DNA from: Rhizodiscina lignyota
Taxonomy: Eukaryota
DNA length: 64,000 bases
Assembly: GCA_010015805.1 (NCBI GenBank)
Contig: ML978126.1
Coordinates: forward strand, 1,922,001-1,986,000
Direction of reading: 5' to 3'
Shown piece by piece: positions 36,650-58,722 of the stretch. Each line of letters starts with the position of its first letter. Position 1 is the stretch's first letter. The notes under the pieces were generated by a model. It saw only the letters and a list, made by a program, of their open reading frames with translations. It was not told the origin of the DNA and did no database searches. The position numbers were made by a program, and so were the translations under genes.

Positions 36650-38500
36650 CGGCCTATTAGATAAGGCAAAGATCGATTTTCCAGGGATATTCTTGGTAGC
36701 TGCTGTCTTTCAAGGTGGGTTGGAGACTGGCCCTAGACCTTTCAGGTTTCCCGAAATAGTAGCGCAAACAGCGTTTTCGAAAAAGGTCACTGCCACAGGT
36801 AAGATGTTTCGCCTGCAATGCTGACCCCCTGCCGCCTGAGCGATGCAGCATATTGCGTATTTTGGAACCGATATGTTTCTCTGACATCAGCTCGTCTCTT
36901 CGAAAAGGCGGGGAAGTGGAATCCGTCGTCTTCACCAAGTCCAAGTTATGTACCGCGAGGACTCGATTCTCCATAGTGTTCCATTCAGTATGCCGATTCC
37001 AGCTCAAAACAATTCTGTAGCTGTGGTACAGCTGAAGAAAAAAAACGCCAAGGTAAGCCGGCTGAATCTCGAATAGACATCCAGTAAAGGGTGCAGAAGG
37101 TGCTGATGTGTTGATCTTCGGTTCGTGTCGGATGGCACGATGCTCCTGTAGAATTCGATTTTTTCTTCTTTATTTGATAGCCCAATCAAGGGTCGGTCTC
37201 ATTTCCAATCATACATGGGAATCGTTGCCAGCGCGTGTAATTACGTACACTGCGCCTGTGCCGGTGAGATTCTTCAAGAGGTGGCCTCGTGCTGAAAATG
37301 CGCAGTCGTTCTATTTCGGTAGCAGCCCTTTTTAAGGCGACCCCACATTGGCACATTGCTTACCTGGCTTGGCTAGATCTTTCTCCCGACCTCTCATGTC
37401 CTCGAAGGTTCTAAAAGGTGTCATTTGACCGAATCAAGTCTCAGGTATTTTCCTTCGAGAGTGGTAACGCCTGCAGCATACACGCCGTTATGGTGAAAGA
37501 GGAGAATGGCATATGTATGATTTTCGTAGGTGGAGACTGGGGCAGGTTTCTCGCATTCGTGCTGCGGCAGGGTGGCATTTCCTGTGATGGTACTTTTCGC
37601 ATGTAAACTCTTTTAGGACTAAAAAGTACTCTTAACATATAGCTTTTTCAAGAGGAAAGGGGGTACTCAAGGTCTTTGATGAGGCATAAGGCAATAGAAG
37701 TTTATTATAAAAAATTGAAGAAGCGCGACAATTAGGGCGTAGCGAAGAGCTTTGAGCCAAATCTTGGCCGGAACTAACACCCTTAACCACGATTTAATTA
37801 AAGTAAGAACAGCCTAGAAGGGTGCCAAAAGCGCTATAGAATGAGATATGAAAAGTTATAGAGCAACTGTTATGAAATTATAAATTTTGGTGGAAAAGAA
37901 AGCCTTACCTTTTTTCACAAGCAATCGTACCAAACGGCACCCTACCGCAGAAAAGATCGAAAAATGACCCAAGCTCAGAAATGACTGAATGAACGATGAA
38001 GAATCCGTGCCATGTATACTCCAAGGCGGTCCACCTCCGATTCCATGGGGTCTTCGGTGGGAAAAAGACATGTCTTGAAAGTTTGAGCCCAATGTTTTTA
38101 TCACTCGAGCCCACCACCGACCCAGAGTCACTGTCAAGCGGGCTTTCATTGACAGCCGAAGTTTTTCCGAGGTTGGCGGGAGGAGCGAAATTTCAGGTGG
38201 AACAAGCCTATAAGGTCGTGAAAGGGTGATTTGAAAGAATTCAAAGATGAGGCGAGGTTGAAATAGAATTCAAGAGTAGATGTTCCCAAATCTCCAACAG
38301 GGGGGCTTGTTCGGCGACCAATTCGCGATTCTCGCACGAGATGGATTTTAGTTGACAGGAACTGCGAGTTTCTTCCGATTGGTTGAGCGGCGATTGAAGG
38401 TTAATGATCCACATCACGTCTACGACGAGCTTGAGGTTCATTGATAGCCCGGATTTTAGGCACAACAAGATGTAGATGGGTGGGCAATGGGTGGTTTGCA
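36650..38500 (-). pseudogene. Degraded unidentified gene or element with an AT/TpA-rich patch (about 37600-37900)
   Basis: Protein-like fragments broken by stops and frame changes; an intron-like GTAAGC...TAG near 37311-37363; many TpA dinucleotides locally. Confidence 0.3.
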
Positions 38501-38961
38501 AGAACGAAAGAAGAGGCGAAGTTGAAATTGAAGTTAGGAATAGTTGTTGTCAGGACCCCAATAAGGAATAGATTTGATGGTACAAAAATCGCCGCTTTGG
38601 CCGGTTCGGGAGTCTAATAACTCAACCTCCACTGATGGATACCACGTCGAAGATCCATATCACGTGTCGGGTGAATAGACACCTTATTATGACCCACCAA
38701 CAACATCTGTGCAGCTTCCTCCTGAAAAATCATGTCTTTTATCGAAGGCTCAAGTCTGGAAATATCATAACTGCCTATGTTACCCGTCGACAACAGGCTC
38801 GAGCTTGAGTGATAGCCCGAATTTTTCGGGGCTTGAGCGAGAAACTCCCGAGTCTCTCACCACCATGTGAAGTCTCAATATTCTGTCATTCAAGTGCTAA
38901 TATTGCATTTCAGTGCCTCCGCGACCATATGTACAATCACACAACATCATTGCATTACACA

Positions 38962-41574
38962 TCATCTCAACTCAAAGACTTTCGCTTTGTACTTCCCACC
39001 ATCGTCTTCTTGATGCTGATTTTGGAACTTGATGGCTTCGTTATCCATCATCCCATGGACGTAGCATTCTCCAATGACCTTGTAGTAGTATCGTTCGTCA
39101 TCGTTGTTTCTAAGCTGTGGCCGTCGAATGCGTGCCTTTGCGAGAGAAGAACCAAATGTGACCACGAGGCGGATCATCGCCAAGATGGCCAGCGTGGCAC
39201 CAGCCACGAGTAGCACTTCGAGACGGCCGTCCTCGGAGGGGAGAGTGCCCGCCAACATCCAGTACGTAATGAAGAACATCGGGACGGCGATGGCTGCATA
39301 GTACTGGTATATATTCTTCCAATATAGGAAACGCTTCGTAAAGCTCTTGAGATTCAACCAAAGCTCCAGTCGGATATGAGCATACTCATTTGCGAGTTGA
39401 TCGGCGAAATGGTGTTGCGCAGCGCTCAATGCCTGGCGAGGATTTCGGAATTGCAGTAGACTTCTTTTCAGTTCCAGACGTTCTTCTTTAAGATTTTCGG
39501 CATTTTCTCGGTCTCGCTGGAGCCTCTCCTGCTGCAGTCGACGCCTTTGCGCCCTTCTCTCTCTGGTCGCTAAATAACTTCGCTGGATGGTGATTGCTGC
39601 CTCTTCCCTCTCTGCCTGTTGGTCCTCTTCCCGCTCCATCTGCAGTTGTTCATCGCTCTTCTTTACTTTCTGGAGGATGACGGGGACAGTACAGCCATAA
39701 AGGATGCATATGAGATGCCCTGGCTCGGTGTCCTCCCGTCCAAGTCCGAGCCTTCCAGCTGCTGTCCGCATTAACCGCCTGTTTGTGATCACAGCTTCTA
39801 CTCTCCGCATAAATTCAGCAACGATAGAGCATTGCATTTCGTGGATGAGAGTTTTTGCTTCCACCGTCCCACCATGGAGGCCTTTGGCAATTGCCTCTCT
39901 GCACGCAGTTGGGTAGAACGCAGGAGCGTTGCGCCCGTGAGGTCCTCTGCCTGCGACTATGGTCCTCCAAAATTCCTCTGGAGGGTCTTTCTTCGTGTTA
40001 AGCCAGCCTCCAAGAGCAAACCAGTTCTCTGGAATATTGCCCTTCCGAGCCACTTCCTGGACTTGGTCGACTTCGTCCAGAACAAAGCCCTCGACATATA
40101 TGCTACAGTGTTTCTTCCTCGTCTTGAACTTGAGTTGTTTGAGATTGACTGGCCTTGTCCCTGCCGCACTGTAGTTGCGATGCCCAGTCATTGGCAATCC
40201 AACCAGAGGATCCGCATTAGCGCGCGCCATTTTGCGGTCCCACATGGTGAATGCTGCGTCTTTCAGACTCGGAATCCAGGACGGTAGCTCTTCGAGGTGG
40301 ATATTCCACTGCCGTCGGCCGGCTCCTGTGTGGCCTTCCATTGGTGGCGGCGGCCTCTCGGAGGATATCGGTGGTGCCCAGGGATGGCAAAGAATGTCCA
40401 AGGCTCTATTGGGCTCAGTCTGGTGGATTGAGAATTCGACGAATTCCCGGCAGAGTTCAGGATACGGCTGTTCGTAATCAACGTAAAATGTTTTGGATGC
40501 AATGTTCTCCCCCCAAGCACTGAGCTCCCGCCGAGCAGAAACGGAGAAGTCTTTCACGCGCAGACTGGCGGCTCGGGGAGTCGCGTCGCTAGCAATTGAG
40601 AGCAGCGCATAAATAGTATCGTGTGGCCGGCCTGCCTGGAAGACGGTAAGGGTTGAAACAAGGTGCTCTAAAGTAAGGAGAGGCTCTTCAAACTTGTCCA
40701 CTGATCTGCGAAAGAGGTTATTGAGATTCTCAACCAGGATAGTGGCACCAAGAGCAGGAACATGGCCGAAGAAGTCGGGGATATGGTTCGTTCGCACGTC
40801 CTTCTTCATGACCTCTGACAGTCGATGTGTTGCAGTCTCGACTTCAACAAAGAGAGATACGGCATCGGAAAACTGTTTCCACGTAATCTTCTCGTCTCCG
40901 CAATACAGTAAGCCCTCTTTAGCCAGAGCGATCTCTTGAACGACCCATCTTCTAGAGAACCAGGGGACATTCATCAATCCAATAAGCGCTCTCCATTTTT
41001 CCGGGATGCTCAGATTCTCGCAGAGACGGTCGAATCCCCAAATGTCGAGGACCTCGTTCTTGATGAAATCCATAGCAATCTTTGGTCCACCAGTAACCTC
41101 CACGCCCTCTCCAAGCCATACACAGACTCTTAAGCAATTCCCATACACGTCGGACATCATCGGCACCTGGTGATTCTTCTCATCATAGTCTTTTTGGTTG
41201 ATGCTAATAGCGTCCACCCAGAGCACGCGTGGTATGTTCTCATACCGCAAGGCCTTTAAAGCTGCTGCCAGATTTGGTTTGATGTCGAATTTGAAGGCCT
41301 CCCAAGTCGGGTTCTGCTTACAGATGATACGAATCGGCACCATCTCTCCCACGTCTCCCCAAGTCCACGACAAAGCTTCGTAGCTCTCTTGCAACTGCCA
41401 TGGGCCGTGCTCTTGTTCCCCTAGTTTCCTTTCGCTGGGAGGTACAGTAAATAGCTCACATTCGATTCCGCTTTCTTTGCTTTCGGCCGGATGCAGCCGA
41501 AGAAGGCGGAGAGCGTTGGGGTGCGGTAATGGGACGTCGGTGTACCGAAAATCCCGAACAGTTGTACCAGCCAT
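38962..41574 (-). CDS. HET-domain protein (het-6-like) with C-terminal coiled-coil/TM insertion (HET1)
   Basis: LRLLRLHP, YEALSWTWG, LWVDAISINQKD, QVPMMSDVY, WFSRRWVVQE, LPSWIP, LYGCTVPVIL, IGECYVHGMMDNEA. Confidence 0.92.
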   Translation of the reverse strand: MAGTTVRDFRYTDVPLPHPNALRLLRLHPAESKESGIECELFTVPPSERKLGEQEHGPWQLQESYEALSWTWGDVGEMVPIRIICKQNPTWEAFKFDIKPNLAAALKALRYENIPRVLWVDAISINQKDYDEKNHQVPMMSDVYGNCLRVCVWLGEGVEVTGGPKIAMDFIKNEVLDIWGFDRLCENLSIPEKWRALIGLMNVPWFSRRWVVQEIALAKEGLLYCGDEKITWKQFSDAVSLFVEVETATHRLSEVMKKDVRTNHIPDFFGHVPALGATILVENLNNLFRRSVDKFEEPLLTLEHLVSTLTVFQAGRPHDTIYALLSIASDATPRAASLRVKDFSVSARRELSAWGENIASKTFYVDYEQPYPELCREFVEFSIHQTEPNRALDILCHPWAPPISSERPPPPMEGHTGAGRRQWNIHLEELPSWIPSLKDAAFTMWDRKMARANADPLVGLPMTGHRNYSAAGTRPVNLKQLKFKTRKKHCSIYVEGFVLDEVDQVQEVARKGNIPENWFALGGWLNTKKDPPEEFWRTIVAGRGPHGRNAPAFYPTACREAIAKGLHGGTVEAKTLIHEMQCSIVAEFMRRVEAVITNRRLMRTAAGRLGLGREDTEPGHLICILYGCTVPVILQKVKKSDEQLQMEREEDQQAEREEAAITIQRSYLATRERRAQRRRLQQERLQRDRENAENLKEERLELKRSLLQFRNPRQALSAAQHHFADQLANEYAHIRLELWLNLKSFTKRFLYWKNIYQYYAAIAVPMFFITYWMLAGTLPSEDGRLEVLLVAGATLAILAMIRLVVTFGSSLAKARIRRPQLRNNDDERYYYKVIGECYVHGMMDNEAIKFQNQHQEDDGGKYKAKVFELR

Positions 41575-42504
41575 CGCGTAATTAGATCATTCGTTTCCTG
41601 AAGAGTAAGAGACCGAGCGCATGTCTCAAGTAATGCGCCCGACAGCGTGCACGCGAACCGTTTCGCATCTTCGGACGGGCATTCTTCGCCCCTTTTAAAC
41701 AAGCATTTTGAGGCTCAAATCCAAGCATTTATTGGCAAAGGTTGAGGCCGCCGGCCGCGACCAGGTGCGGCCTCGAGATGCATGATGGCGTTCAGCTGGT
41801 TGCTGTCTTTAGCGAATCTCGCCCTCGGTCGCCCTTTTTGACATGGGGATCGTCTGCAGCCAGGCTTGTTGGAGTTAACCTCTTCCGTCTCCGCACGGAT
41901 CGCTTCGATCATTGGGAGGGCGGGAAACGAATCGCGTTGGCCGAGGCAACTGAAGCGCAAGCTGCGTGAGTCGAGAAAAGGCAACTGAAAAGTTCGTCTG
42001 CCTTCCGAGGAATAATAAGAAGATGAAAAGGGGCGGGGGAGTGTGGCGTCCCCTGTTATCGTCGGCACGATGTTCGGGCCGGTCCTGAGTCCCAGCCCCC
42101 TTGCGGCTCTGCGGCTCCTTATTAGGCGCTCTCTGACCCTAACCCTCACACCCTGAATATTAAGGTCACCCCATGAAGGTGTGCTGCGCAACTCTCTTGG
42201 AATGGTTTCGTCTCTTTTTCTTTGGGCTGAAGGAACACACGAGCGTCGCGATGGAGGCAGGACAGAAAAGCGTTCCGCTAACCACGCCTTGATACTTTCA
42301 GCTTGCGGATACTCTAACGCATTTCGGGCGGTCCAGCAAGGCTCAGAGCCTCAGCCCTCGTTAGTTCCGACCAGTGAGAGGAGTCTGTCTTAGGCCTCCG
42401 ATTTAGCGGTTAAGCAGGTAAACCGATTAAAACTTTCAACTCCGTTGCTTTGATATTTGCAGTACTCTCAAGCGTTCTCTGAAGCATACTCTTCTCCATC
42501 AACT

Positions 42505-43986
42505 ATGGCAGCGTTCTCTTCAAACGGCAACCCAAGCTTCGGTTCTCTCAATTTGGCTCCGTTCTTCGAACTCCCTGCTCTTCCAAATATCGTCGCAGAG
42601 TGGGCAGCCATTATTCCATTGGTCTGCCATCTGGCCAGCTACAGACGAGACTACAGAACGTTGGGAGACGTCGCGCTTCTTGGTTGTATCAGCCTCAGCC
42701 TGTTCCCCAAGTTGGGCACTTTGGCTGGTCTCAGTCGTTTGTTACGTCGAGGCCCCGAATTTTTCGATGAGGCCAGTACACGAGGCGGCGCCACATGCAC
42801 AGTGTGGGACGTACGTTGGGGTAGTGTTTTTCCCTGCGCAAACGGCGCTGCTTGCGAGTTCGTGAAGGACTTTTTCCGGCGTCGCAGGTCTACGCCAGCC
42901 GTAACAATGCCAGAGTCTGTACAAGAAGCTGGTTCTAAAAGCCGTCCAATGTCGTGCCCAATAGAAAAGAGTCCGGATGAAAAGGGCACCCTGAGAACTC
43001 AAGCAAGCGAAACACTGCAGGCTTCAGAGAGAGCTCGAGCCCACCAGGAAATCCATGCCGGAGAGGAGTCCCAAGAAGCCACAAAAATATGTACAAGCAG
43101 TAGTTCGGACTCAGCAACGCGGCATGGAAATTGTGTCTTTCGACGATATCAGACTCTCCACGTTCTGCGAGCTCGGTTCACTACCAAGCGCAAGCGCTCT
43201 ATGTTCGACGGTGCCCGCCGTACAATCAATTTCGTAGGAATCGCGGCCATGCCTATTCTCTCAATTCTCCTGGTTTCGGTTCTCGCCATGTGTGGCGCTT
43301 ATGGGACAGCGGTTATTGTCCTTTGCAGCATGATCTCTCAAATTGCAGCTAAAAACACCATCATCCGACGGCCTCCTGGGTACCTTCAGTCTAATGAATC
43401 ATGTGAAGATGCATGTATGCTTATGGCACCGCACCAGAATGCTCAAGAGTGGACTTTGTTCATCGGAGACCGCGGCATAGTGGATACTCTGCTCAACAAA
43501 CCAATGATCATGGTCCAGGATTGCAGAGCAAACTCAGTAGCCGCAGCGTGGTTCACTGCAGCTAACCTCTTACAGCTTCTGGCTATGACATTTGTTGCCG
43601 GTCAGAAGGGGTGGGACGGTGTCTGCCTTGTGATACTCATGACAGCTGAATTTGCTTTTCAGTGGCGTACTCAGAGCATCAGGCTAGCGAAGGCATGGGT
43701 AGCTGAAGCTGGAATCGATGCACAGGTCAATTCGTTTCAATTTGGCAGCCGAATGATCATGTTGGGGGCTATTGAAAAATTCCTTGGTTGCAAGAGAACA
43801 GTTTGGATGGACCAAATTATTCCACCCCATCCCAGACGCGAGGCTTGGCTCTGTAATCTTTTCGAGGAGCCGTTTGATGAAGCTAGCTTCATACCGTCTG
43901 ACATTGCCTGGATAAAGTTGAGCGGTGCCTTGGCCACTCTCTCGGCCAACATATTACAAAGAACCACGATGGCCGACGAGGTTTGA
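42505..43986 (+). CDS. Uncharacterised multi-pass membrane protein
   Basis: Long intronless ORF (first ATG at 42505) with several hydrophobic segments (IAAMPILSILLVSVLAMCGAYGTAVIVLC; AAAWFTAANLLQLLAMTFVAG; GVCLVILMTAEFAF). Confidence 0.8.
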   Translation: MAAFSSNGNPSFGSLNLAPFFELPALPNIVAEWAAIIPLVCHLASYRRDYRTLGDVALLGCISLSLFPKLGTLAGLSRLLRRGPEFFDEASTRGGATCTVWDVRWGSVFPCANGAACEFVKDFFRRRRSTPAVTMPESVQEAGSKSRPMSCPIEKSPDEKGTLRTQASETLQASERARAHQEIHAGEESQEATKICTSSSSDSATRHGNCVFRRYQTLHVLRARFTTKRKRSMFDGARRTINFVGIAAMPILSILLVSVLAMCGAYGTAVIVLCSMISQIAAKNTIIRRPPGYLQSNESCEDACMLMAPHQNAQEWTLFIGDRGIVDTLLNKPMIMVQDCRANSVAAAWFTAANLLQLLAMTFVAGQKGWDGVCLVILMTAEFAFQWRTQSIRLAKAWVAEAGIDAQVNSFQFGSRMIMLGAIEKFLGCKRTVWMDQIIPPHPRREAWLCNLFEEPFDEASFIPSDIAWIKLSGALATLSANILQRTTMADEV

Positions 43987-44050
43987 CGGTGTCTGGAGAT
44001 TCCTTCACCTGAGAACAATGATGAGAGCGATACATGTCACACAATGCCGC

Positions 44051-46630
44051 CTACACGATCAGCATCTCACCTCCTTCGAAAAATGAAATATTTTCATCAA
44101 CCCATTTAAAGACACCTAACCAATGCCAGGAGCGTCCTTGGTCCTTACTAGCGGTTATTGCTGCAACCGCACCAGTATAGTCCCCACGATCGTCTCCGCC
44201 AATGTACAGAGACCGGCCGTCGTCAGCTGCTGGCTTCAATACGCGGACACGAGCGTCTCCTAAAATCTCAGCGATCGTTTCAAAAGCCAGAGCAGCATCA
44301 GGAAAACCATAAACCTCTGCGTCTTCTGGAATATCTTGCCCTGTATCGGGAGCCTGGCCGAATTTAATATCCCATTCCGCGGGGTAACGCTCACAAAGAC
44401 GCTCTCGGTACTCTTCCAAAAGACTGGCATCGAACTCTGTGTACATCCAAACACTCAGGAGGCCACTGTCCGTAATGCGACCCTCGTAGCTTCCGTATCC
44501 ATCGTAACTATGGTATCGGGCGGTGTAAGCTTGTTCGATTTCATCGCATCGTATGTGTCGAGCTTGTGGCAAAATCGTTGGAGTCGACGGAGCCCAGCCA
44601 AAGCCTCGAGCATTCTGAATTCTAGGCGCGCTGGACATCAAGTATGCCGTTTTCACGGTCCTTTGGTCTTTCCAAAGGTTGAGAACATCACCCAGATTCT
44701 TGGAATTGTTCAACAATCCCCAAATTATGACATCATCACCAGGTCTTGAGGCATGTCGCTGACTCAAGATATATCCTGCCTCTTCTGCCGTCTTGCGTTG
44801 CGTTTCGTCGAGCGTCGGAATCAAATGCCCTGCGCTGCCTATGAGTGTCGCCAATGATATCGAACCATCCTCCCAGACACGGCGGGTGAGGTCCACGAGT
44901 GATATCGTCTCATCTCCCTTGCACAAAATATGTACAGCTTGGTTACCTCGTGTGGCTTCAAGCATTGTCCAAGCGCGAACATTCCAGTCACAAACCAAGA
45001 GCACCGACAAGACTGTCTCAAGGCTGCCAATATCACCATTCGCCAGATCTACAGATTGCACGTCCTGGTCGCTAACCAAAACGGCTTTGCTGGTAGCGAA
45101 AATCGTGTTGATCTTCGCAATCGCTTCTTTCCGCAGTCTGTCGTCTGTAGGAATGCATGTGGAGTCGATCCAGTACGAGTCACATTCATGCTTTGTAGCC
45201 AGGTCGGAATAACGTGCGTGAAGGCAGCGGTTTATACCGTCTTCAGGTCTTCCACCTTGTCCATGGGCCCAGACGTGCGATATTGCAAGAGTCTGCTCTG
45301 AAGCAACACAGTATTGCAGGTCCTTTTTGCTGCTGTCAACACGCACGGCGCGGGGGCTCTCCACCTTGAGATACGATGCTTCATTCCAGAAAATCCTGCC
45401 ACAGGTTGAATCGCAAGATGGGATGTGGGCCGATTGTGCCAATGTTTCTGCCCCGGTGAACCGCTGGCAAGAACTCGGATCATCGCCCAGGCATGATTTG
45501 CTCGACGATTTGCTACAGCGGCCCGGGCGATCGCCGAAATGGCTCGTAAATCTCTCCAATAGACAGCGGAAATCCAGGCCGATGGCGGTTCTACTCCGTC
45601 GCAGCAGTTCTAAAGCCCAATTGCAGAGATATTGGGAGGTGCTAGCGCCTCGATAATCAATATCCATAAGACGAGAGTCACTGAGTTCCTCGAGCCTTCC
45701 TACACCGCGTACAGCAACTAAGTCATTCCAATCCGCTGAAGAACCATGATGGAGTTGCGCGCCGACTATACCGTACAAGTGCAACATCGTGGAACGCTGC
45801 CACGCGCCCCATAAGAAGGTTCTGACTACATTCAGTCTCTGCGGGTCATTAATCGGAACATCCCCTTCGGGAAAATATATTGTAGAATGCGGTAGCTCGC
45901 CTGTCGTATGACAGAAAGCGATGTAGTCAGTGAAGATTTCGAATTCGTTTAACAGTTGCGCAAGGGTGTCCACGTATTTGTAGGTCGCATACGAAAATTC
46001 CGGACTGAGTTGGGTTTTTTGTGAAGCGAGCATGACCAGCAGTGCAACTGAATTGTCGTCTATGTGATTTGTGACGATAAGATCGCCCCATATGTCCTGC
46101 GTCGTGTATTTCAGCATCTCCAACTCTGACTCTGACAGTGCCTCAGAGTTAGACATCTGGCTGTTAGATGAAAGCTTGTGGCGAGCATCATCGATAAGCC
46201 ACTCTGGAGACCATTGAGCTCTTCTCATTCTTTGCGCTATCGTATCTGTCTGTGCTTGTGGATTTCGCCCTGCAATACGGAAAGCGAGCAGTTTCATGGG
46301 AGTGGGAGGTAGTCGACGTAATATGTGTGATGCTCTCTGAAAGACTGTCTTCTCTAGATTCTCTCCGTCCATACAACTCGATCCTCCAAGCATCAAATTA
46401 GGAAGCAAACTGGAGAGTCGTTTGTTGAGCTGGACCAGATGCTCCGTAGGGTTCGAGATCGCCTGGAACAGCTGGACACACAGTGGAGCTAGCTGCTCAT
46501 GCCTTTGAATCTCATCAACTTCACTAGCCATTGGGCAGTGTAGACCCGATCCCCAGTCTTCGTTAACGCGCCTCACGATTGTGTTCAGAGAAAGGCGAGG
46601 TTTTGGCGATGATTGCGTTGATAGATCCAT
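44051..46630 (-). CDS. Divergent HET-domain protein with a long N-terminal extension and a Cys-rich segment (HET2)
   Basis: LAISHVWAHGQGG, YWIDSTCIP, AIAKINTIFATSKAVLV, DWNVRAWTMLE, SQRHASRPGD, GFGWAP. Confidence 0.85.
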   Translation of the reverse strand: MDLSTQSSPKPRLSLNTIVRRVNEDWGSGLHCPMASEVDEIQRHEQLAPLCVQLFQAISNPTEHLVQLNKRLSSLLPNLMLGGSSCMDGENLEKTVFQRASHILRRLPPTPMKLLAFRIAGRNPQAQTDTIAQRMRRAQWSPEWLIDDARHKLSSNSQMSNSEALSESELEMLKYTTQDIWGDLIVTNHIDDNSVALLVMLASQKTQLSPEFSYATYKYVDTLAQLLNEFEIFTDYIAFCHTTGELPHSTIYFPEGDVPINDPQRLNVVRTFLWGAWQRSTMLHLYGIVGAQLHHGSSADWNDLVAVRGVGRLEELSDSRLMDIDYRGASTSQYLCNWALELLRRSRTAIGLDFRCLLERFTSHFGDRPGRCSKSSSKSCLGDDPSSCQRFTGAETLAQSAHIPSCDSTCGRIFWNEASYLKVESPRAVRVDSSKKDLQYCVASEQTLAISHVWAHGQGGRPEDGINRCLHARYSDLATKHECDSYWIDSTCIPTDDRLRKEAIAKINTIFATSKAVLVSDQDVQSVDLANGDIGSLETVLSVLLVCDWNVRAWTMLEATRGNQAVHILCKGDETISLVDLTRRVWEDGSISLATLIGSAGHLIPTLDETQRKTAEEAGYILSQRHASRPGDDVIIWGLLNNSKNLGDVLNLWKDQRTVKTAYLMSSAPRIQNARGFGWAPSTPTILPQARHIRCDEIEQAYTARYHSYDGYGSYEGRITDSGLLSVWMYTEFDASLLEEYRERLCERYPAEWDIKFGQAPDTGQDIPEDAEVYGFPDAALAFETIAEILGDARVRVLKPAADDGRSLYIGGDDRGDYTGAVAAITASKDQGRSWHWLGVFKWVDENISFFEGGEMLIV

Positions 46631-47141
46631 CGTATGCCGAAGGAATTTGGAGAGAGCTACTGTTGGCGGCTGCGAAGGAAGTGTGATGCGCTTTTGACTT
46701 CTCGACTTAGTTTGCTAATGATTGGCAACATAACTAAGTACAGTAGTGTTGTCAGCCTTGCTCCCAACAGGAAGCGCGGGCACAAGGCTGACGCACCTGA
46801 AGATTCGTGAGGTTCATAACCACTCACTGATGCCTGGAGCTGCAGCACAAGGGCGACACGAAGACCGAGAGTTTGCCGACAAGCTGCCGATAGCATTTTG
46901 TATCGATAGAGTATGCTTATACTCTGATCGAACTAAAATTGATTGCTGGAGAAATTTAAGGTAAGATACAAGCCTCAGAAAAATGACGTTTCTGATCTAT
47001 GCGCAAAACTGAATAGCACCGATGGACCAGCTACGAACGCCTGTTGGATTGACCGCTTTTCCATATCGCCATTCTAATAAATCCAGATACGCCCCTTCTC
47101 ACACGATTACGCTCGCATTCCATATAGTGTTCTAATCAGCA

Positions 47142-48788
47142 TCAAGGTATGCTCTCCTCGCTGCCCCTCACTTTACTCTCATTCTCGCTCGACTCCTCAC
47201 TGCCCCTCACTTTACCCTCTTTATCGCTTCCCTCCTCTCTGGCTTCCACATTCTTTACCCCGTGGTGCCAACGCAGGATCTTCGGACGATTTGGCACGAT
47301 CAGCTGCCGGATCTTGATGTTCGCGACGTGCATTACGGCTGCGGCGTGTCTAGGGCCCGGCACACCGTCTGGAAAGATGATATACAGCCCAGATTGCAGT
47401 GACGTGTCTGGCCGGAACTTGTCATGGTATGCCTTCTTTCCACCAACGGGGAGGGCGCGGAATGTACGCTGGTAGGCTGAACGGGAAAGGCTGGAAACAA
47501 ATTTTGGCATGCCGACTATCTCACCGAGGTTGGGCATTGGCTCATAGCCCAGGCTGAGATAGGAGATGCCCGCGCGGTTGAGGAGGGCCATGGCGGAGAA
47601 GATGAGGAGGTCGGTAACACCTCGCGGAGCGTCATGGGTGGCGATACAAGGGTCGATATGGAAACCGCTGTTGGCACCGAGTTTTCTGAGTGCGGCGAAC
47701 CCGTTGGGCCTGCCATCCGGACCTCTAGTGTAGATGTAGATCATCAGTTCAGGGAGAGCAAAGGGGTTGTAGACGGTGATAAAGGCCTGGAGCTTGCCGT
47801 TGTACTGGCGGTTCCGCTCTTCGCGCCAAGTTTCGTAGATATCCATCAGCTGTTTTTGCAGGATGGGGTTTGTTCCAGTGGCGGGACTGTACACTTCGAC
47901 GCTGATGTTTCCTTTGTTAGGATCGAGAAGCTGCTTGTTCTGGCTGATTATGCGCTTGCCTGCGCTCTCGAAAAGGACGGGATTTGTCGCCGGATTGAGA
48001 ACGCATTCCTCCCCGAAGTGCATCGTGACCCATCCTTGCTCCCGGGCGAAGCTCGCGAGCTGTCCACTGGCCCCTAAGAATGCGATGCCCAATCCTTTCT
48101 TCTTTCGATACCTCTTGAATTCTTCCAAGACTGCCGGATATTCGTCAGGGCGGCAGAGTGGATCCCCGCCGACGACAGCGATTTTGTTCTCGACCTTGAA
48201 GTAGAGTGCCGCATCCATGGTACTACTAAGGAAGAAACTGTAGCTCTGATCCAATATTCCCATGTGTGATACTCGCCCATAGCGCTCAATGAGCGACTCT
48301 AGAGCAGCCATGGCGGCGAAATCACCTAGTGAGAAGATATTGTTGCCCCTCTTCCACTTTGGAACTGGACTTGAGCGCGTATAGTTAGGGGAAGAGACGT
48401 GTATATGGGAACCCGTGAAATGGAGTAGGGTTTGAGGGTTTGGGCGAACTGTTTCCGAACTTCCCGTAGTGGTTCCCGGGCTTCCCGTAGTGGTCCCAGA
48501 GCTCCCCATAGTGGTCCCCGAACTTCCCATAGTTGTAGTCATCGAAGCTGAGCTTGACAGCGTTGTCGACCACTGTGTAACGATCAAATGCCGCGCTAAA
48601 TCGAGGGGGTCCGGAACGTTCTGAAAGGTGTAAAGGAGCGCATCTGCCATGTTGTTTCCCACGCGCTGGAACAAATACTCGCGAGCTGTAGATTGGGTAC
48701 ATTTAGCTTCCAACTGTCTCTTCGTCTCTTCTCCTCCCGCATCTGCCCTGGGGCCGTTTATCCTTGCATTCTTGGGTTTTCGAGCCAT
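47142..48788 (-). CDS. Stand-alone DUF2156 (MprF/LPG-synthase C-terminal-like) tRNA-dependent aminoacyltransferase, ErgS-like
   Basis: RYGRVSHMGILD, AVVGGDPLC, FGEECVLNP, GFAALR, APRGVTDLL, YLSLGYEP, KKAYHDKFRPD; no synthetase domain fused. Confidence 0.8.
   Translation of the reverse strand: MARKPKNARINGPRADAGGEETKRQLEAKCTQSTAREYLFQRVGNNMADALLYTFQNVPDPLDLARHLIVTQWSTTLSSSASMTTTMGSSGTTMGSSGTTTGSPGTTTGSSETVRPNPQTLLHFTGSHIHVSSPNYTRSSPVPKWKRGNNIFSLGDFAAMAALESLIERYGRVSHMGILDQSYSFFLSSTMDAALYFKVENKIAVVGGDPLCRPDEYPAVLEEFKRYRKKKGLGIAFLGASGQLASFAREQGWVTMHFGEECVLNPATNPVLFESAGKRIISQNKQLLDPNKGNISVEVYSPATGTNPILQKQLMDIYETWREERNRQYNGKLQAFITVYNPFALPELMIYIYTRGPDGRPNGFAALRKLGANSGFHIDPCIATHDAPRGVTDLLIFSAMALLNRAGISYLSLGYEPMPNLGEIVGMPKFVSSLSRSAYQRTFRALPVGGKKAYHDKFRPDTSLQSGLYIIFPDGVPGPRHAAAVMHVANIKIRQLIVPNRPKILRWHHGVKNVEAREEGSDKEGKVRGSEESSENESKVRGSEESIP
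48457..48540 (-). repeat. In-frame 21-bp tandem repeat (about 4 copies) encoding TT(M/T)GS(S/P)G
   Basis: Protein reads TTMGSSGTTMGSSGTTTGSPGTTTGSSE; DNA units such as gaacttcccgtagtggttccc. Confidence 0.85.
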
Positions 48789-49439
48789 TTCAGTCCTGTT
48801 TCCACTGGAAAATACTAGTTATGGAAAGGCAAGCCTGATGTGCAGAAGAGTGCGTATGACAAAAAGGAGTAATGTTTGAAGTGCCCAGGCGGAACGAACA
48901 GAGAGCGACCATCATTTAAAGAAATTGGAAGAGAAATAAAACCACAAAGTTGCTTGCAAAGCATTGTACACGTAGAGATTGCGCCTCAGTCCGCGATATT
49001 CGCTATGAAGATGCGTCAGACCACCTACTCTGCTCCCAAGTTGGCCTTTGTGCCTTCGCGTCACTTCCCCTATTTGGCTGAGCATGCGATCTCCGCCATG
49101 CTGATTACGACATGCCCTCGTCAGAAGCACGTGACTTGCTCTACAGGAGGAAGCCCGCGGTATCTCGTCCGGCATTGTGGGAATCGAGGTGGAATTGACG
49201 CTTGAACACCTGTCTGTGTACTCTGTAAGGGAGAGAAAATACAGAGTTTTGCACCCTGGCCGCGTGGCACTCTTGCACTGCCAAGACGCTATTCCAAGTT
49301 TGGATAATATACCACAGCCGAGGCAGCTAAGCCCACTTCACAGACAGGATACTATGCAGACCCGAATAATGCAACCCGATCGAGCTCGACATTTGTCCAG
49401 CCTCACTAGGATCTTGTGGTGCTTGTTTGAACGCGCATC

Positions 49440-49820
49440 GTCATCGTATCATCTCAAGCTCGTACCAATTCGCAATTGAGTGCTTTCGCATCATACCCCA
49501 ATCTCATACCAGTCGCAGCTCGGACTTTACATGTCAAACGCAGCTCGTGTTACTCGTCGCTCACTTCCGTTGGTCACTTACATATCATTCGCTGGCTCGT
49601 AACGACCCGCAATTAGCATTCACGTACCATTTCTTATGTTTCTCGTTCTCGTCCATAGCTCATACCATTTCCTAGCACCCGTTTATTCCATATCATCTCT
49701 AAGCTCACACTCATCCTTAGTTTAGGAGCTGCGGATCATTACGAGCTATGAAATCGCATGGACTGAGGAACAATGCGTAATAGCGAATAGTACGCACTGC
49801 AGACGAATACGAGCTGGAGA
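49440..49820. repeat. Degenerate direct and inverted repeat array (AGCTCGTA core)
   Basis: gctcgtaacgacccgca (49595-49611) is inverted at 49730-49746 (15/17 match); core at 49457 and 49542, inverted at 49808; tatcatctc(t)aagctc occurs twice. Confidence 0.5.
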
Positions 49821-49907
49821 ATAATACGGAAAGGCTCAACAACGGAGTGATACCTCGGAGACGGTTTCTATCCTCTGGGTTTGCATTTTTCTTTGTTGAA
49901 GTTTTAC

Positions 49908-52042
49908 CTAAATGATTCTAATTCTCCGAAAACTTAACGCATCATCCCAATTCGCACTTTCTTGAACACACGCAAAATAATCCTCGATGTAGAAATACCC
50001 AGCTCGTTTGTAGACGCCACCTGCCGCAGACTCCAGTACTAGGCCTTTTATTTCATGATTGAAGCCTGGAGTATGTAAGGCAGACAACTCAAGAAGCCAG
50101 TATTCGTGACAAGAAGTCCTTCGGCTCCCCGACCAGAGCCCTCCATCTCCAGACCCCGCCGATCGGAAACAAGCAGGAAGCGCCGCTCCAGCGTCTAGGT
50201 ATATTGCAGTAGACGAACACTCGTCATCACCCTTCTGTCGGTGCATCTCTGCTAATTCACCGCAGTCGACCCTCCGAACCGGCGCATAGAGCTCCAAGAA
50301 TCCACTCTTGATAGCGCACAAAGGAGCCTTATTAGATACTGGGACAATCTCCACAGATTGAACCTCCGCTCTTGTGTCGTGCTGCATAGTGGAGTTGTGA
50401 AAGTCAACAGGCCCGTCGACGCTAGCCCATGACCAGCTCGGGGCACGATATTGTGCTGGACGGCCGAGTGGTACAGAGGCTTTGTAAAGGGACCACCGGC
50501 TACCCTGGCACCAGAGCAAGCTTGGTATTAGATTGCTTTTCCAGATCCCAGCGAGGTACATGTCCTTCGCATAGAAAGCAAGCTCTGTCGCTATCGCAGA
50601 TATTGAGGGGAGCTTGTCCTGTCCCACTGTCAGATGCCGTGATGTGACTTCATGCACTATATCGGCCCAGCGTAGGTGTGCCATCTGCCGTGTTTGATGA
50701 AGTGTATCGTCATCCCTTGGCTCATCATCGGTGGCATCTGTCTCGGATATCGTGGAGTTTCTGATGGGTCCGATGGTGCCATACACAGCTGAGAGCCTCT
50801 CCCAAGGAGCGCAGTGTCCATCAGCAGAAGTGCCCGAGATGCAGCGCCAGAGCGTCTGACTGGAGCTGAATATTATGGAGCGGGGAGAGAGCAAAGATTC
50901 CTGGAAAGTCCATGCGCGAAAGTCAATTGGTTCCTTCGGACTGCTTTCGCGGCGCATCTCTGCTAGAAAGATGTCATCTAAGTAGCCATCTGGGCAGCGA
51001 AAGGACAGCTTAAAGGCTCGCTTCATCCACGAGATGACAAGGTCGTTGTCGTGGAGAAATCCATCTTGACACGTCCGCGATCGGGCGGCGGAGAGAGTGA
51101 CTGCCGCGTTTTTGTAGATTCCACTCATGTTCCCAATCTCGGTATATTTATCGTTGCTGTCATCTTGAATAATGCAGAGAGCGTCGACCCACAAGTACCG
51201 AATGCCTAACTGTTTCGTAAACAATATTGCATCTCGTATGGACTTTGCTAAGGCCTCTAGCTTTATCTGCCTGCAATTCGCAGAATAATTCATTGACGTT
51301 GTCATGAATTGTGACGAACCCCAGCAGTAGCTTAAAGCCGCATAGGATCCTGACCTTCCCATCGTCTCGAGAAGTTTGATGTTGGTGAGGTTGTTTAGGT
51401 TGTTTGAGTCCAAGTCAAGAACCCGAGTCGGCAGTGGAGCAGCTGACAGCTTAGGGCATCTCTCATGTTTCTCGGAACATTTTGCGATCCAGGATCGAGC
51501 AGTACGAACAGTATTACTAGACGCTGGAAACGGGTTGGCTGGCGAGGATTCGACGTATTGCGACAGTTTGGAGCCTGCCATGCTCAGGCCAAATGAGATT
51601 GAGCACAGCTATAATGACAGCAAATGGAAATGATAGAGAGTACTGACTCACCGGGGAGCGCAAATGCGTTGAAGTACGTCAGCTGGGTCGTCCTCTTGTC
51701 GTGGTGCTCAACGAGGAACTGGGCTGTAATGCTGCCTCTGAATTGTTGGAAGATCCTTGCGCCCCAGTCAAGTTGGAGCTTTATCGACGCAGATGAATCA
51801 GAGATGTCAGACTCTGACAGCTTGCTAGCGAGCTGGGCCGCAAAGCCGCAGGCCCGGATGTCGTTCAGCTTGGATACGCTGCATAGTGGTGTCCCTTTCC
51901 CCAATTGAATGTCCCATCGCTCATCCAAATTTTGAAAGACTGTACAGATCGGGCATACATTGCAACAGGTGGACTCAATACCAGCGATGTTAAAGTCAGC
52001 ATCATGGAATGTCGAAAGCGGCAATTTGCGAAAATCTTGCAT
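49908..52042 (-). CDS. HET-domain protein (pin-c/tol-like type); 2 exons (HET3)
   Basis: WIAKCSEKHERC, LPTRVLD, YAALSYCWG, YLWVDALCIIQDD, RAWTFQESLLSPR, DKLPSISAIA, YRAPSWSWASVDG. Intron 51575-51651 joins the upstream exon in frame. Confidence 0.92.
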
Positions 52043-52595
52043 GGCTTCAAGACTTCGTGGAACTGGCGTTTACGGGTGTGGAGAGGTGAAGTCCAACATT
52101 TGAGCTGTCATCGTATAGCAGAGACATTGATGCTATCTCGGACATGAGCATGTCAACGTAAGAAAGGAGGGCAAAAGCATTTCTGGCTGGAAAGCTACTG
52201 ATGTTAAGCGTGAGCGTACGTGAGGTTCGAACGGCAGTTCAGGGGAACGCTAAACCCCGATCCTTGCCGGTGTTCGGCTTCTCCCACAGTGCCATTCGTG
52301 AGCCGAGCGCCGACTTCACCCCTGCATGTGGCGCAGCCGCAAGGGCCAAAACCATTTTGGTGGTGACACGAACTGGCAAGCACACCCACTTACTCCATCG
52401 CTCTCTACACTTGCCGCGTCAAACTCTGTCCTCTGGAACATTGCCAAATGGCTGCCTGCGATTCTGAAGAACTTGCGAGTTGGCTCGCCGAAAGAGATCG
52501 CAGGTGCGGGCAGGTAAGCCACCGTAAACATGTCGCGACATCGACGCGTTTTGTTCCCTCGACCACCAGTCAAATCTTGACCACAACCACGCGCA

Positions 52596-55409
52596 ATGAA
52601 CGCGTCAGTTCTTGATTTTTGGCTCGGCCATGTCATCCTTTTGTACGCAAGTACATTGATTGCTGGTATCTACGATGCGATCATTGTCACCGCTGTCGAA
52701 TTGCCCATCAGCTATCTTCTCGGCGACTACTCCAACAAGAGCTCGTTCATTATCCGAAAACTCGGGGGTTTGCTGCTTATCTGGTGGTGGTGTCATCCGT
52801 GTGCCGGTGCAGCCGATATCCTCGCAGACTTCTCGAAATGGGCGTCTCATGATGCTCCCAATGGACCGCCCGTGGCTACCAAAACCTCGATTGCGCATGC
52901 AACAGTCTTCTTCGTCTCGGCCATATGGACAGCACTGGATTGGCAACATTTTCTACGTACGATGATCTGCATGTTTAAACCAATTAGCCACCAATTTGTA
53001 ATTGCTGTCACCGGTATGCTGTTGCCCCAAACAGCAATCCTTGAGCATGGAACAGCTACTGCATATTGGATCTGCGGAATGGCACCATATTCCACGTGCT
53101 GGGGAGCCCTAGCCTACATCGCGGCCTTGCGGTATAGATCTCCATATGTACTGGATGTCTACTTCCTGGTGTGTTTCATACTCGACATTACTTGGTCTCG
53201 CACGAGCATTCGGAGTCGCACAATCGGAAGATTTTGCATCGTTATGCCATGGAGCATCATGAAAGCGTTGATTACTCTACCTTTTGCGAATATTTGGGTG
53301 TTTAGGCAGTCGCTCAAAGCATTGTATTGGCAGGCACGACATCTCGTCAGGCAAAAATGGCTCTCCAGCCATCATAAGCAATCCAAACGAAGAATGAGAG
53401 AAGACTTCAAATACAGACCTCTCCAACCCGGCCAAATACGCCTCTTGGAGGTGATGCGAAACCCGAGAAATCTCGAAATAGAATGCAGGCTGCGGCACGT
53501 TCATCTATCAAAGGCTAGCGAGTACGACGCGATTTCTTATACCTGGGGAGCAGAGTCTCCAACGCACGGTGTTGATGTCGATGGTCAATGGATCAAAGTC
53601 AGAACGAATGCATACGAGCTACTTCAAGACCGGGCAGTCATCAACGAGACGAGGGTCATCTGGATGGACTGTCTGTGTATTAATCAAAGAGATCATGACG
53701 AAAAGAGATTGCAGATTCCTATGATGCCCAGGATCTACCGAAAAGCCAAGCGAACAATCATATGGCTGGGTAATATCAAATACGCTGAGCAATGTCTGTC
53801 GTTGTTTCGAGATCTGGTAGACCGTCCTTGGGATTTCTATGCCCCGGAAGAGATACCGGAGGCAGTGAAAGCTCCCCCGAAGTGGCAAAAGAAAAGGCCG
53901 ATTCGTTTCTCTATGGTGGAAGGACTTGACCTCCGATTTCGGGCACTGGCGAGGATCTTAGAGCATGCCTGGTTCTGTCGAATCTAGGTGCTTCAAGAAG
54001 TTATCTTCTCCGACACAATCCACATCCGTGCTGATGGAGTCTGGATAGACTGGGAACTCTTCACTTCTACCATGAAGCTGTTTTCTGACCCAGAGCCGTA
54101 TATGCTCTGTGGTCGAGAGACACTGTATCTTAACATGAAGGATATCAAAGTTCTGGCCAAGATCTTTCTGTTAACACAGGCGAAAGATGTCGAGCGAGCT
54201 CGGTTTCTGAACAGTCGACCGAGGCCGAAGCTGGTCAATCTCCTCTCGAACCTCTGGATCGCAGAGTCGTCCGATGCTCGAGACGTGATTTACGGCCTGC
54301 TGAACCTTTGCTCTGACGGCAGAGATGAATGTCTAGTTCTAGATTATCGCAATGAATCGACCACCGAGTCTCTCTATATCAAGTATGGAGAACTTTGCGT
54401 GCAACGAAATGAAATCCAGGAAATCTTGTACCTGGCAGGAATTGGGTATCCCCGAAAGCTGTCCATTCCCTCTTGGAGTCCAGACTGGACCTCAATTCCG
54501 ACGGTGCCGACACTCCGAAAGAGGCATTACAATGCGTCCGGTGAAAATCAAGGCAATTTCATGCTCGTTTCATCGACAATGCTTTCTGTCAGCGCGGTAT
54601 TGGTCGACAATATCATACAGATCGCGGACAAAGCTTTTACATCGGCCAATTTCACCTACAGGAGTCTACCTAATATGTCTACACTTGCGCAGAGTCGGAT
54701 AGAAGTTGACTCGCAGAACATGGCGAAGTCTTTACCCGACGAGTATGACGGTGGTAAGCATCATGGCTTGCAATCCCGCGACGAAGCATTCTGGCGAACG
54801 CTCATTGGAGACACGGAAGCCCTTTCCTCGCGCACACATTCTAGGACCGACTGCACAACACCAACGATACAATCTCCGTACAACTTCGAACTGAGATATG
54901 AACGTCCGGCGTCGCCAGAATATGGCAGACTCTTCAACACTGAATGTGCGCTTCGAGATCAGCGCCTTTCCAGCCTAACACCCAAGTCAAATCCGGCGAA
55001 GAGCAAGAGTCTCTGGGCCAGAGCTCAATGCGAGTCTAAAGAGGATCCTGATCTCGTGGCCGCTTGGAGACGCGGGTACCAGAAGGTGCCCGATAACCCA
55101 GCAGTGATTCTAGACAGCGACATGCGGTTTACGGATGCTTTTGTCACCTGTGCCAGTGGCCGGAAGTTTGCCATAACGGAGAATCCAGTCACCGGAAGAA
55201 AGCGAATGGCGCTGGTTCCACCTGAAGCGCAGGTCGGAGACAATGTCTATGTTATTCATGGTATGGAGGTACCGTTTGTGATGAGGCGCTCGACGAATCC
55301 TTTCCCCGAGTATTGGCTCAAGATGGTTGGCGAGTGCTTTGTACATGGAATTATGGATGGCGAAGCAGTGCACAACGGGGCGGTTACAGAGCTGATATAC
55401 GTCTACTGA
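52596..55409 (+). CDS. Membrane-anchored HET-domain protein interrupted by one in-frame TAG at 53985-53987 (HET4); edited/readthrough gene or pseudogene
   Basis: ORFs 52596-53987 and 53988-55409 are contiguous and in the same frame: YDAISYTWG, IWMDCLCINQRD, WFCRI*VLQE, DARDVIYGLL, PSWSPDW, VGECFVHGIMDGEA. N-terminus is hydrophobic; an upstream exon (52326-52503) is possible. Confidence 0.88.
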
Positions 55410-55700: not shown

Positions 55701-56027
55701 CTAGTCCGCAACAACGACTTGATACGAGCTCCAAGGCCCTCCAACTAAACAAACAGTGTCTCCAAAAACCTCGCACGCGTCTTCGTCGCTACAGCCAGCG
55801 GATGCTGGTGGAGTACACAGCGTCACGAACGCTTCTTGATTATCAGGAAAGAATTCGAATGCGGTAGCCGCCGTGTCCGTGATTGCCGTGCAAGGGGTTG
55901 TGTCGGATCCTGTGATTGTGATGCCACCGCTAATGCACTCGGACCCAGGGGGATAGAGAGTTAAGCTCCAGCAATTGGACTTGGAGAAGAGCGCGAGAAG
56001 CGTGCAACAGAGAAGAGAGTATTTCAT
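55701..56027 (-). CDS. Small secreted Cys-rich protein (108 aa), effector-like
   Basis: Signal MKYSLLCCTLLALFSKSNC; acidic mature part with 6 Cys, ending WSSYQVVVAD. Confidence 0.75.
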   Translation of the reverse strand: MKYSLLCCTLLALFSKSNCWSLTLYPPGSECISGGITITGSDTTPCTAITDTAATAFEFFPDNQEAFVTLCTPPASAGCSDEDACEVFGDTVCLVGGPWSSYQVVVAD

Positions 56028-57206: not shown

Positions 57207-57613
57207 ATGAAGTTCAATCTCGTTGTCCTCTTGCCGATGGCCCTAGCTGTCTTAGCATATTCACCTGTTGGTGTTAGCAAGGGCTCACTGATCGGCCGGG
57301 CTAACGGTGGCGTAAGTTGATTCGTTCTCCATATCATCCTCTGCATCGAAATGTTGCGCTTCGTAGAAAGTTGTTCAAGAGCTGTTGCTAACACCCATAT
57401 ATAGCCTACCGGTCCGTTGAAATGCGAGGGAGCAGGAACATGTATCAGCTCTTTTACTTGCGGGCTGGTCAACGGGGCTGGTGGAACATGTGCCTGCGAC
57501 ATCTCTAGTTGCCCAATCGGCTCAAAGTGCCAGTGGTATTTCCTCTCAACTATTTCCGAAAATCGTCAGAGACTCAGAGTTTTGATAAAGTGACTCTTTA
57601 CAGTGCACCTTAA
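57207..57613 (+). CDS. Small secreted 8-Cys peptide (81 aa); 3 exons
   Basis: Exons 57207-57311, 57405-57535, 57604-57613 with GT-AG introns give MKFNLVVLLPMALAVLAYSPVGVSKGSLIGRANGGPTGPLKCEGAGTCISSFTCGLVNGAGGTCACDISSCPIGSKCQCAP*. Confidence 0.8.
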
Positions 57614-58722
57614 GACTGTGTTGATCGTCTTCGATGAGATCTTAGGAGGGGGCAAGTGCAGACGATGACGGCCAGGAGAATTTAGAAAGCGAGCAATGTG
57701 ATGTCAAGTTAGAAATTACCGAGGTGCTGATAAAATAGAGGATATGGATACATTTGATATCCTTGTATTGCTACTTCAAAAGCCAAATATAAGTGATGAG
57801 AGTTTGAGCGTGAACGACTCTGCCAGCTGCATTCTTTCCTTGCAGAACAACGTGGACGGGTCAAACTGGAGGTTTTTGGACGGCCCTATGCTTTGCGCTA
57901 CTAGAATCCCCAAGTCTGCTGCCGCAATCTGAATATCCTGCATGCCGAACCCATTCAGCGCATCCAGAGGCATGTTAGTCGCAGTTGACGAAGATATACT
58001 GTACGAAGTACGGAGTAGCGAGATGAGGATTCTACAAGGTCCAGAGGTCGCGCTCATATCAGATCCGCGGCCTGTATGATGATATTGCGCTAGTCCCCTT
58101 TAGGATAAGCCGCCGTAAGTATTATCCGATGCCTGCACCTGCGTCTCGCAACATCATTCATCCATCCTCATCACAGACCGGCCACTATGCATGCATCTGA
58201 CATACTCCTATTCCATTAACACTATTAGAATGCTAGCGATAGTCCCGTCTAATACTGTAGCAGCAGGTCTTATTCGAATGCATAGATGTATCCGCATAGC
58301 CTCCTTTGGCAGTTGGCTCCGCAGTTCAGGCCTTTCGTACCGTTCCTCAACTCACGTTATCCCCACTCGTACTATTTCACTGCTCACTGATTCATTTATT
58401 CCCGAGTCTGCTTTTCGACCCCTTTCTCCTGTCTAATCTTCGCAATGGTCTCAGCTAGACGCTTGAGGCGGGTGCTTGATTCCCTGCCCCCTCAACCCTA
58501 TCAGACCCTGCTGCTGGCTGCCGGCTACCGGGCCGTTGCAGTTCCCTAGCTCCCACCAATAACGCACCAGTAAAGGTTCCTCAACTGCCGTTATACATGT
58601 ACCAGTCAAGAATTCCATGTGGGGTAAATCAGTTTTTATCTTTTCCGTCTTCTCTCTAATTCTGCCATATTATAAAGTTCGCTCCCGTTAATCTACCCTG
58701 CAGCGTAGAGACAATTGCAGCC

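Follow-up and report, generated by a model that had tools for sequence, protein, structure and literature searches.

The HET domain ranks with the commonest in filamentous fungi, and a partner is known for few of the genes that encode it (PMC10890737; PMC12881547). The locus described here raises the question of whether four HET genes lying within 16.5 kb form one allorecognition or defence island kept together by selection. The window analysed is a stretch of 64,000 nucleotides (C6:1922001-1986000) from the 33.4-Mb genome of a filamentous ascomycete. The initial annotation had placed four HET-type genes in it, and all are present: HET1 (38962-41574, minus strand; single exon, 870 aa), HET2 (44051-46630, minus strand; 859 aa), HET3 (49908-52042, minus strand; two exons, 685 aa) and HET4 (52596-55409, plus strand). 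HET1, HET3 and HET4 score above the curated PF06985 cut-off of 22.5 bits (93.9, 100.5 and 78.3 bits, respectively). The Cys-rich HET2 falls just below it, at 21.6 bits, with a paralogue on contig C2 at 23.0 bits, and its AISHVW, YWIDxxCI and WxxRxWTxxE motifs align with those of the other three genes. Pairwise identity between the four HET domains is 18.5–28.9%, and DNA comparison of the genes revealed nothing beyond chance seeds of 13–31 nt; the four are, thus, old subtypes, as had been proposed, rather than recent duplicates.

The four different architectures attributed to these genes are for the most part borne out. HET1 has, towards its C-terminus, a helical insert that is charged, an IQ-like stretch and a hydrophobic hairpin of two segments (residues 761-779 and 788-806), and a similar hairpin is found in a paralogue with 44% identity (C14:450984-453536). 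HET2 has a Cys/His cluster, and HET3, the first exon of which (52042-51652, followed by a predicted intron at 51651-51575) was hidden in the list of open reading frames, has the PSWSW motif tied to the TOL and PIN-C class (PMC10890737). The N-terminal segments of HET4 were described as membrane-spanning, but its first 260 residues are weakly hydrophobic (KD peaks of 1.65–1.68). This gene is, moreover, a probable pseudogene: an in-frame TAG (53985-53987) lies within the last conserved HET motif, at the usual Trp position of WxxRxWxxQE. Rescue by an intron was considered and rejected, as none of the 12 candidate introns that would keep the frame has a consensus donor. The letters of the stop are identical in a 154x Logan contig from the sole run listed for this DNA, which is probably the source sample; no RNA run was listed for it. 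No other flanking pseudogene was confirmed among those that had been suspected.

The surroundings of the genes partly match what had been claimed for them. The absence of NACHT/NLR genes stands: PF05729 has no match in the window, the open reading frames scanned include no NLR family, and the closest NACHT match listed on the same contig is about 150 kb outside the window. Two secreted-type, Cys-rich genes do lie at 55.7–57.6 kb: a small open reading frame with a signal-peptide-like start and no Pfam match (55701-56027, minus strand), considered a bystander, and a second small gene (57207-57560, end approximate, plus strand) with an intron near position 57311. The AT-rich patches amount to two dips of 300–450 bp with a GC content of 0.36–0.39; both are single-copy and nothing stands out in the 1-kb indices, leaving an origin by RIP or from transposons unsupported. 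The open reading frames at 41715-42350, 38241-38549 and 57776-58099 have no Pfam match.

Two further genes lie among the HET genes. The first (42505-43986, plus strand), referred to here as the partner gene, encodes a 493-aa protein assigned to no Pfam family and predicted to form a five-helix membrane bundle. The second (47142-48788, minus strand) is a free-standing DUF2156 gene (PF09924, 108.9 bits). Genes of this kind have been described as ergosteryl-glycine synthases (PMC8913301) and, like them, 47142-48788 has a PF09924 domain and no synthetase domain; it is a putative ErgS-like aminoacyl-tRNA-dependent lipid transferase and a bystander. Neither of these two genes, nor the stop in HET4, figured in the initial annotation.

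Whether the four HET genes cluster more tightly than the genome background would predict depends on how such genes are distributed. At least 151 PF06985 matches were obtained from 217 candidates genome-wide; 150 were scored and listed, HET2 not being in the list. Neighbouring HET pairs within 13 kb number 12 among the 150 listed, against 8.6 expected under uniform placement, and triples within 13 kb number two among the matches listed, the window's own and one at C10:1269228-1281558. No denser HET cluster than that of the window occurs among the matches listed; its local density is about 40–50 times the genome mean, but this figure is a maximum chosen post hoc. If the genome is taken as a single line and the genes are placed uniformly, the probability of finding four HET genes in 16.5 kb somewhere is 0.012, 0.038 or 0.058 for 151, 217 or 250 genes, and confining HET genes to half of the genome raises it to 0.07–0.23, or to a third of the genome to 0.19–0.55. 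The case for a four-gene island is therefore weak, as the chance of such a cluster somewhere in the genome is 1–6% under uniform placement and 7–55% if HET genes are confined to half or a third of it.

The composition of the cluster was compared with that of 67 metagenome loci retrieved with a HET2 alignment. One of them (L026) also pairs a HET1-type gene with a Cys-rich HET gene (39–46% identity over three stretches), which argues for an island, as does the report that HET genes can lie on both flanks of the partner in the case of PII-like genes (PMC10890737). However, no HET3-type or DUF2156 gene adjoins the Cys-rich HET at any of the 67 loci, no other neighbour from the window recurs, and the gene set as a whole is repeated at no other related locus; the DUF2156 gene was accordingly rejected as a third member of any module around HET2. 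HET4 is broken, the lipid-enzyme gene interrupts the series, and another triple exists on C10 in a genome with at least 151 HET matches, so the single island of the initial annotation is not supported. According to published accounts, moreover, het genes make up only four of the 132 HET genes of Podospora (PMC10890737), and lineage-specific clusters are common for HET genes (PMC10684091). The four genes probably do not constitute one unit, and an island selected as a whole for allorecognition or defence is improbable. The 16.5-kb stretch is best explained as HET genes of unrelated subtypes, including one dead gene, gathered into a loose cluster specific to the lineage. In a genome where HET matches exceed 150, such a cluster is little out of the ordinary.

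A smaller association within the stretch recurs far more widely. The partner gene and HET2 are convergent, with 64 nt between their stop codons. When the 67 loci retrieved with HET2 were scanned with a profile of the partner, the partner was the immediate neighbour of the HET gene (estimated gap below 1 kb) at 18 loci, or 15 of the 48 groups formed at 90% DNA identity; short contigs carry many of the loci, family membership is doubtful for two, and at L043 the partner is a fragment. Where at least 3 kb was available on both flanks, the partner adjoins the HET gene at nine of 22 loci and in eight of 15 groups. The chance of such adjacency is about 1e-4 per locus, by arithmetic from two partner copies in 33.4 Mb. 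Both partner copies of the genome studied here adjoin a Cys-rich HET gene; the second pair, at C2:916-920 kb, is in tandem, with 41% identity (HET core) and 44% identity (partner) to the pair in the window. Consecutive locus tags provide further pairs in named fungi: SUNI508_04802/04803 (Seiridium), BP5796_12717/12716 (Coleophoma), EPUS_07173/07172 (Endocarpon), PAC_19238/19237 (Phialocephala) and CHGG_10924/10923 (Chaetomium), five genera that we take to span Sordariomycetes, Leotiomycetes and Eurotiomycetes. The HET2 family and the partner family are, thus, linked. The pair is a real and apparently undescribed variant of HET-partner loci: no description was found in the literature searched, which included searches on six locus tags and covered a minority of subscription papers. 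The S3 Table of PMC10890737, devoted to the HET neighbours of PII-like genes, may bear on this novelty.

The HET gene also occurs unpaired. In the genome studied here, the surrounding 15 kb contains no partner at three of the five places with a Cys-rich HET gene, and the HET gene at one of these places has an open frame of 839 aa; elsewhere, seven of the 15 fully flanked groups, including the apparently intact L033, are partnerless. A linked partner is therefore not always needed by the HET gene. In the reverse direction, inspection by eye gave a HET match for 14 of the 119 partner homologues listed, most Xylariales copies having no visible HET gene; the homologue lists behind this check are the best 120 of 165 and the best 120 of 562. 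Searches for the partner itself yielded 230 homologues, and 400 in the 50% library. Prokaryote genomes and viral contigs yielded no relative of it. HET1 lies head-to-head with the partner gene across a gap of 930 nt, an arrangement that does not in itself place it in the same module.

Such patchy presence is what would be expected if the two genes were neighbours only by inheritance, or as cargo of a mobile element, with no common function. The divergence of the two families bears on this. Twenty-eight pairs were compared (14 obtained from DNA, five named, six paired only by matching contig sizes and three fusions), and HET distances were found to correlate with partner distances (Mantel r of 0.69; 0.48 when the three fusions are left out and 25 pairs remain; p 0.0002), a positive correlation that linkage alone would be expected to produce. 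The two gene trees have only three of 24 splits in common, and with 22 pairs either alignment rejects the tree of the other (on fast trees and few AU replicates), which argues against lock-and-key co-evolution; strict co-speciation of the pair was rejected on these trees. The C2 HET protein and its Endocarpon counterpart are 75% identical and their partners 42%, whereas L016 and Coleophoma have partners 64% identical and HET proteins 46% identical. These comparisons show linkage to have been kept while the partners were, judging from the sequences, partly exchanged between lineages. The WxxRxWTxxE motif is retained in 27 of the 28 paired HET proteins.

Adjacency has survived replacement of the partner, it persists in all four orientations (divergent in seven groups, convergent in five, tandem-upstream in two and tandem-downstream in one) while other neighbours differ, and in one clade it turns into fusion; linkage without common function is improbable on these grounds. 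The fusions are three predicted proteins joining a divergent HET to the partner: P0288, P0291 (CHGG_10924) and P0303 (ASPCAL00269). In each of them, an extra hydrophobic segment lies 34–40 residues ahead of the first helix motif of the partner, and a stretch longer than 50 residues precedes that motif in only five of the 96 free partners. These fusions are possibly merged gene models, because the extra segment could be a signal peptide, although P0288 occupies 2919 of the 3105 bases of its contig, leaving little space for an intron. As the two genes are found side by side or fused in many distant fungi, they probably form one working unit, and we consider it highly likely that HET2 and its partner work together.

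What the partner might do was explored on its AlphaFold model (pLDDT 86.8, pTM 0.83; residues 158-203 disordered). In this model, helices 28-43, 234-262, 266-283, 341-367 and 370-387 probably constitute the membrane bundle; strong hydrophobicity is confined to one of them (family mean 2.38), with 1.0–1.4 in the rest. Basic residues flank the helices at 215-238, 284-296 and 386-402 and are missing from the 260-267 loop, a distribution that would place the large conserved domain in the cytosol. The invariant polar residues N113, R214, Q216, D327, N331, K332, R416 and R444 suggest a binding or catalytic pocket. Whole-protein queries brought no clear relative: 29 of 30 family members have no Pfam match and the remaining one has a sub-threshold EccD match, none of the 30 matches Het-C, and the partner, a 493-aa helical bundle, has no PII-like Pfam match. 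Foldseek against the PDB gave nothing at E<=0.001, VIA gave generic helical bundles (best Z 6.4), BFVD, PDB sequences and PADLOC contained no match and Atlas only unnamed fungal clusters. Judged on such queries and on the model, the family appears to have neither a Pfam entry nor a clear structural match. The idea of an NLR-independent, membrane-associated HET biology, already present in the initial annotation, is supported by the pairing of the Cys-rich HET with a conserved, probably membrane-bound partner and by the hairpin that HET1 has in common with its paralogue.

The HET2 model (pLDDT 87.7, pTM 0.91) consists of an N-terminal helical domain (residues ~1-300), a Cys/His cluster (336-410), the HET domain (~445-605) and a beta-rich C-terminus. 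The invariant residues of the cluster (C336, C372, C380, C388, H402 and C410) probably bind metal. Fold searches with whole HET2 gave no clear match, and residues ~441-607 resemble TIR domains and nucleoside deoxyribosyltransferase weakly (Z 2.3–4.0), the resemblance being confined to that domain; TIR chains align over residues 441-606 at Z 2.3–3.6, among them SARM1 (9mw2; Z 3.6, rmsd 3.9, 102 residues aligned), TIR-APAZ (8qlp; Z 3.5) and ThsB (8btn; Z 3.1). E558 is invariant across 96 aligned homologues, and we infer from its position and from PMC9153377 that it may correspond to the TIR catalytic glutamate. No NADase assay of a HET protein was found in the literature searched, and a 2025 review gives HET biochemistry, enzymatic activity and structure as not determined (PMC12881547). 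A complex of HET2 331-859 with partner 22-490, predicted from single sequences with the first 330 residues of HET2 excluded, scored 0.07.

We tentatively favour, at somewhat less than even chances, an inferred mechanism in which the HET protein is the executioner and the partner stands upstream of it, the two genes forming an NLR-free module with a membrane sensor controlling a TIR-like enzyme. The partner would sit in the membrane with its N-terminus outside and its conserved domain in the cytosol, and would sense a lipid, a metabolite or a foreign protein, or be itself the guarded target. Contact with the partner would then activate the HET protein, with the helical N-terminal region and the metal-binding Cys/His region as the probable route; the TIR-like domain would cleave NAD+ through E558, and this cleavage would start regulated cell death without an NLR. 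A similar order, from partner to HET executioner, has been proposed for het-c/pin-c (PMC2988816) and for Bh/Bp (PMC10890737).

The main rival reverses this order, in the manner of type II Thoeris: the HET protein would be a sensor-enzyme making an NAD-derived signal, which the partner would bind with its conserved cytosolic domain before damaging the membrane. The exchange of partners between lineages fits this reading, since a diffusible signal would allow it, and so do the invariant polar residues, as a putative pocket for the signal; in type II Thoeris, ThsA is described as a transmembrane and Macro effector downstream of the TIR protein (10.1101/2024.01.03.573942). Against this, the predicted fusions suggest that proximity matters, and overexpression of the HET domain is reported to be sufficient for cell death (PMC10197012; PMC2988816; PMC12881547), so that a separate effector may be unnecessary. 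Such a relay is unlikely, though with a real chance. Its most specific form, a fungal Thoeris-like circuit in which a metal-binding, TIR-like HET protein makes an NAD-derived messenger gating a membrane effector of new fold, is a slightly longer shot; if true, it would supply the missing HET biochemistry and the first dedicated downstream effector of HET. The tight linkage could also reflect addiction or spore killing, the partner being an antidote that restrains a constitutively toxic HET protein; both genes are fragmented together at L052, and several unpaired HET genes are in pieces (L053, L060 and L068). Intact HET copies with no linked partner nevertheless argue against such an antidote, and partner swapping and conflicting trees are ill-suited to a cognate one, making this an improbable explanation. 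Both the antidote and simple synteny fit less well than the sensor controlling an executioner or the messenger relay. The module, which is conserved, mostly intron-poor and predicted to exist in a naturally fused form, offers a small system for studying how HET proteins are switched on and kill, whether they cleave NAD and in which direction the signal runs.

Several known systems resemble parts of this locus. The whole 16.5-kb region fits the clusters of HET and lineage-specific genes described in Neurospora, in which unrelated HET genes lie amid young genes in non-syntenic patches (PMC10684091); these clusters are typically near telomeres, and about 186 kb separates the region here from the end of its 2.16-Mb contig. 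In type II Thoeris, the gene for a TIR-fold enzyme lies beside that for a membrane protein with a soluble domain, as in the pair; Thoeris is, however, bacterial, with a Macro domain and a defined messenger (10.1101/2024.01.03.573942). In het-c/pin-c of Neurospora crassa, a membrane protein gene likewise adjoins a non-NLR HET gene, presumed to be the death effector (PMC2988816). HET-C is a glycine-rich, single-pass protein, and its linkage is reported to have arisen in the ancestor of Sordaria and Neurospora (PMC2988816); the partner described here, by contrast, is predicted to be multi-pass and has no Pfam family, HET2 falls outside the PIN-C class and its pairing with the partner extends over several classes of fungi. 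In Podospora anserina, het-B (Bh/Bp) and the related PII-like/HET pairs also form NLR-free two-gene loci, with a partner that recurs beside HET genes across Pezizomycotina (PMC10890737). Bp belongs to the small, soluble PII-like proteins, and only about 5% of the genes for such proteins are reported to adjoin a HET gene, from several HET lineages (PMC10890737), whereas the partner described here accompanies one HET subfamily in roughly half of its fully flanked groups and is predicted to be fused to HET in some fungi.

The left end of the interval is marked by EMC6 (window 33252-33644, minus strand), which the initial annotation had taken as its anchor, and this assignment is borne out by a PF07019 match of 86.3 bits. 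A UstYa/DUF3328 gene (PF11807; 35785-36518, minus strand) lies about 2.4 kb away from the stop codon of HET1. Elsewhere in the window, a 645-aa ORF on the plus strand (20176-22113) contains two astacin-like metalloprotease stretches (PF01400). The free-standing ErgS-like gene (47142-48788, minus strand) encodes an N-terminal part with a Thr/Gly/Ser repeat tract, and a short, repeated acidic tail. A second cluster is present in the same genome, at C10:1269228-1282076 (L004 and L005), where another three HET genes lie within 13 kb, with ordinary genes between them.

The closest paralogue of HET1 (38962-41574, minus strand) is encoded on contig C14 of this genome (450984-455333; L082:1485-5834). 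It contains an IQ calmodulin-binding motif (PF00612) scoring 20.2 bits, just below the cut-off of 20.3, and this match opens the insert that the paralogue shares with HET1. A similar IQ-like stretch is present in HET1 itself, without any Pfam match to the IQ motif. The HET1 subfamily may be regulated by calcium/calmodulin. The C14 paralogue is also longer at the N-terminus, by about 600 residues, which have motifs resembling those of a trypsin-type protease; this part of the protein has no Pfam match. The C14 gene may, thus, encode a protease-HET fusion.

The HET1/HET2 neighbourhood of the window has a single echo among the 48 groups of related metagenome loci: in L026 (2097-8554), a HET1-type gene directly follows a Cys-rich HET gene, with just 1.3 kb of sequence available upstream. 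Within HET2 (44051-46630, minus strand), several short contig variants were found at 44862-44930 in run X1, the only sequencing run containing this DNA, at depths of 2-15 versus 108-154, and are probably sequencing noise.

Cys-rich HET genes form tandem arrays of three copies in L016 and two each in L028 and L035, and the homologue FGSG_13410 (P0090) has a doubled HET gene model. In L010 and L015 (4191-6335), the gene for the partner, the probable membrane protein adjoining HET2 in the window, is interrupted by a stretch of about 800 bp that separates profile positions 346 and 344, with the HET gene intact; the stretch may be either an insertion or an intron. The partner gene is present in two tandem copies in L027, in which a relative of a NACHT-like ORF adjoins the HET-partner pair. 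In L021, L051, L058, L059 and L063, the NACHT-like ORF (P-loop region judged by eye) is found on the upstream side of a Cys-rich HET gene that is truncated.
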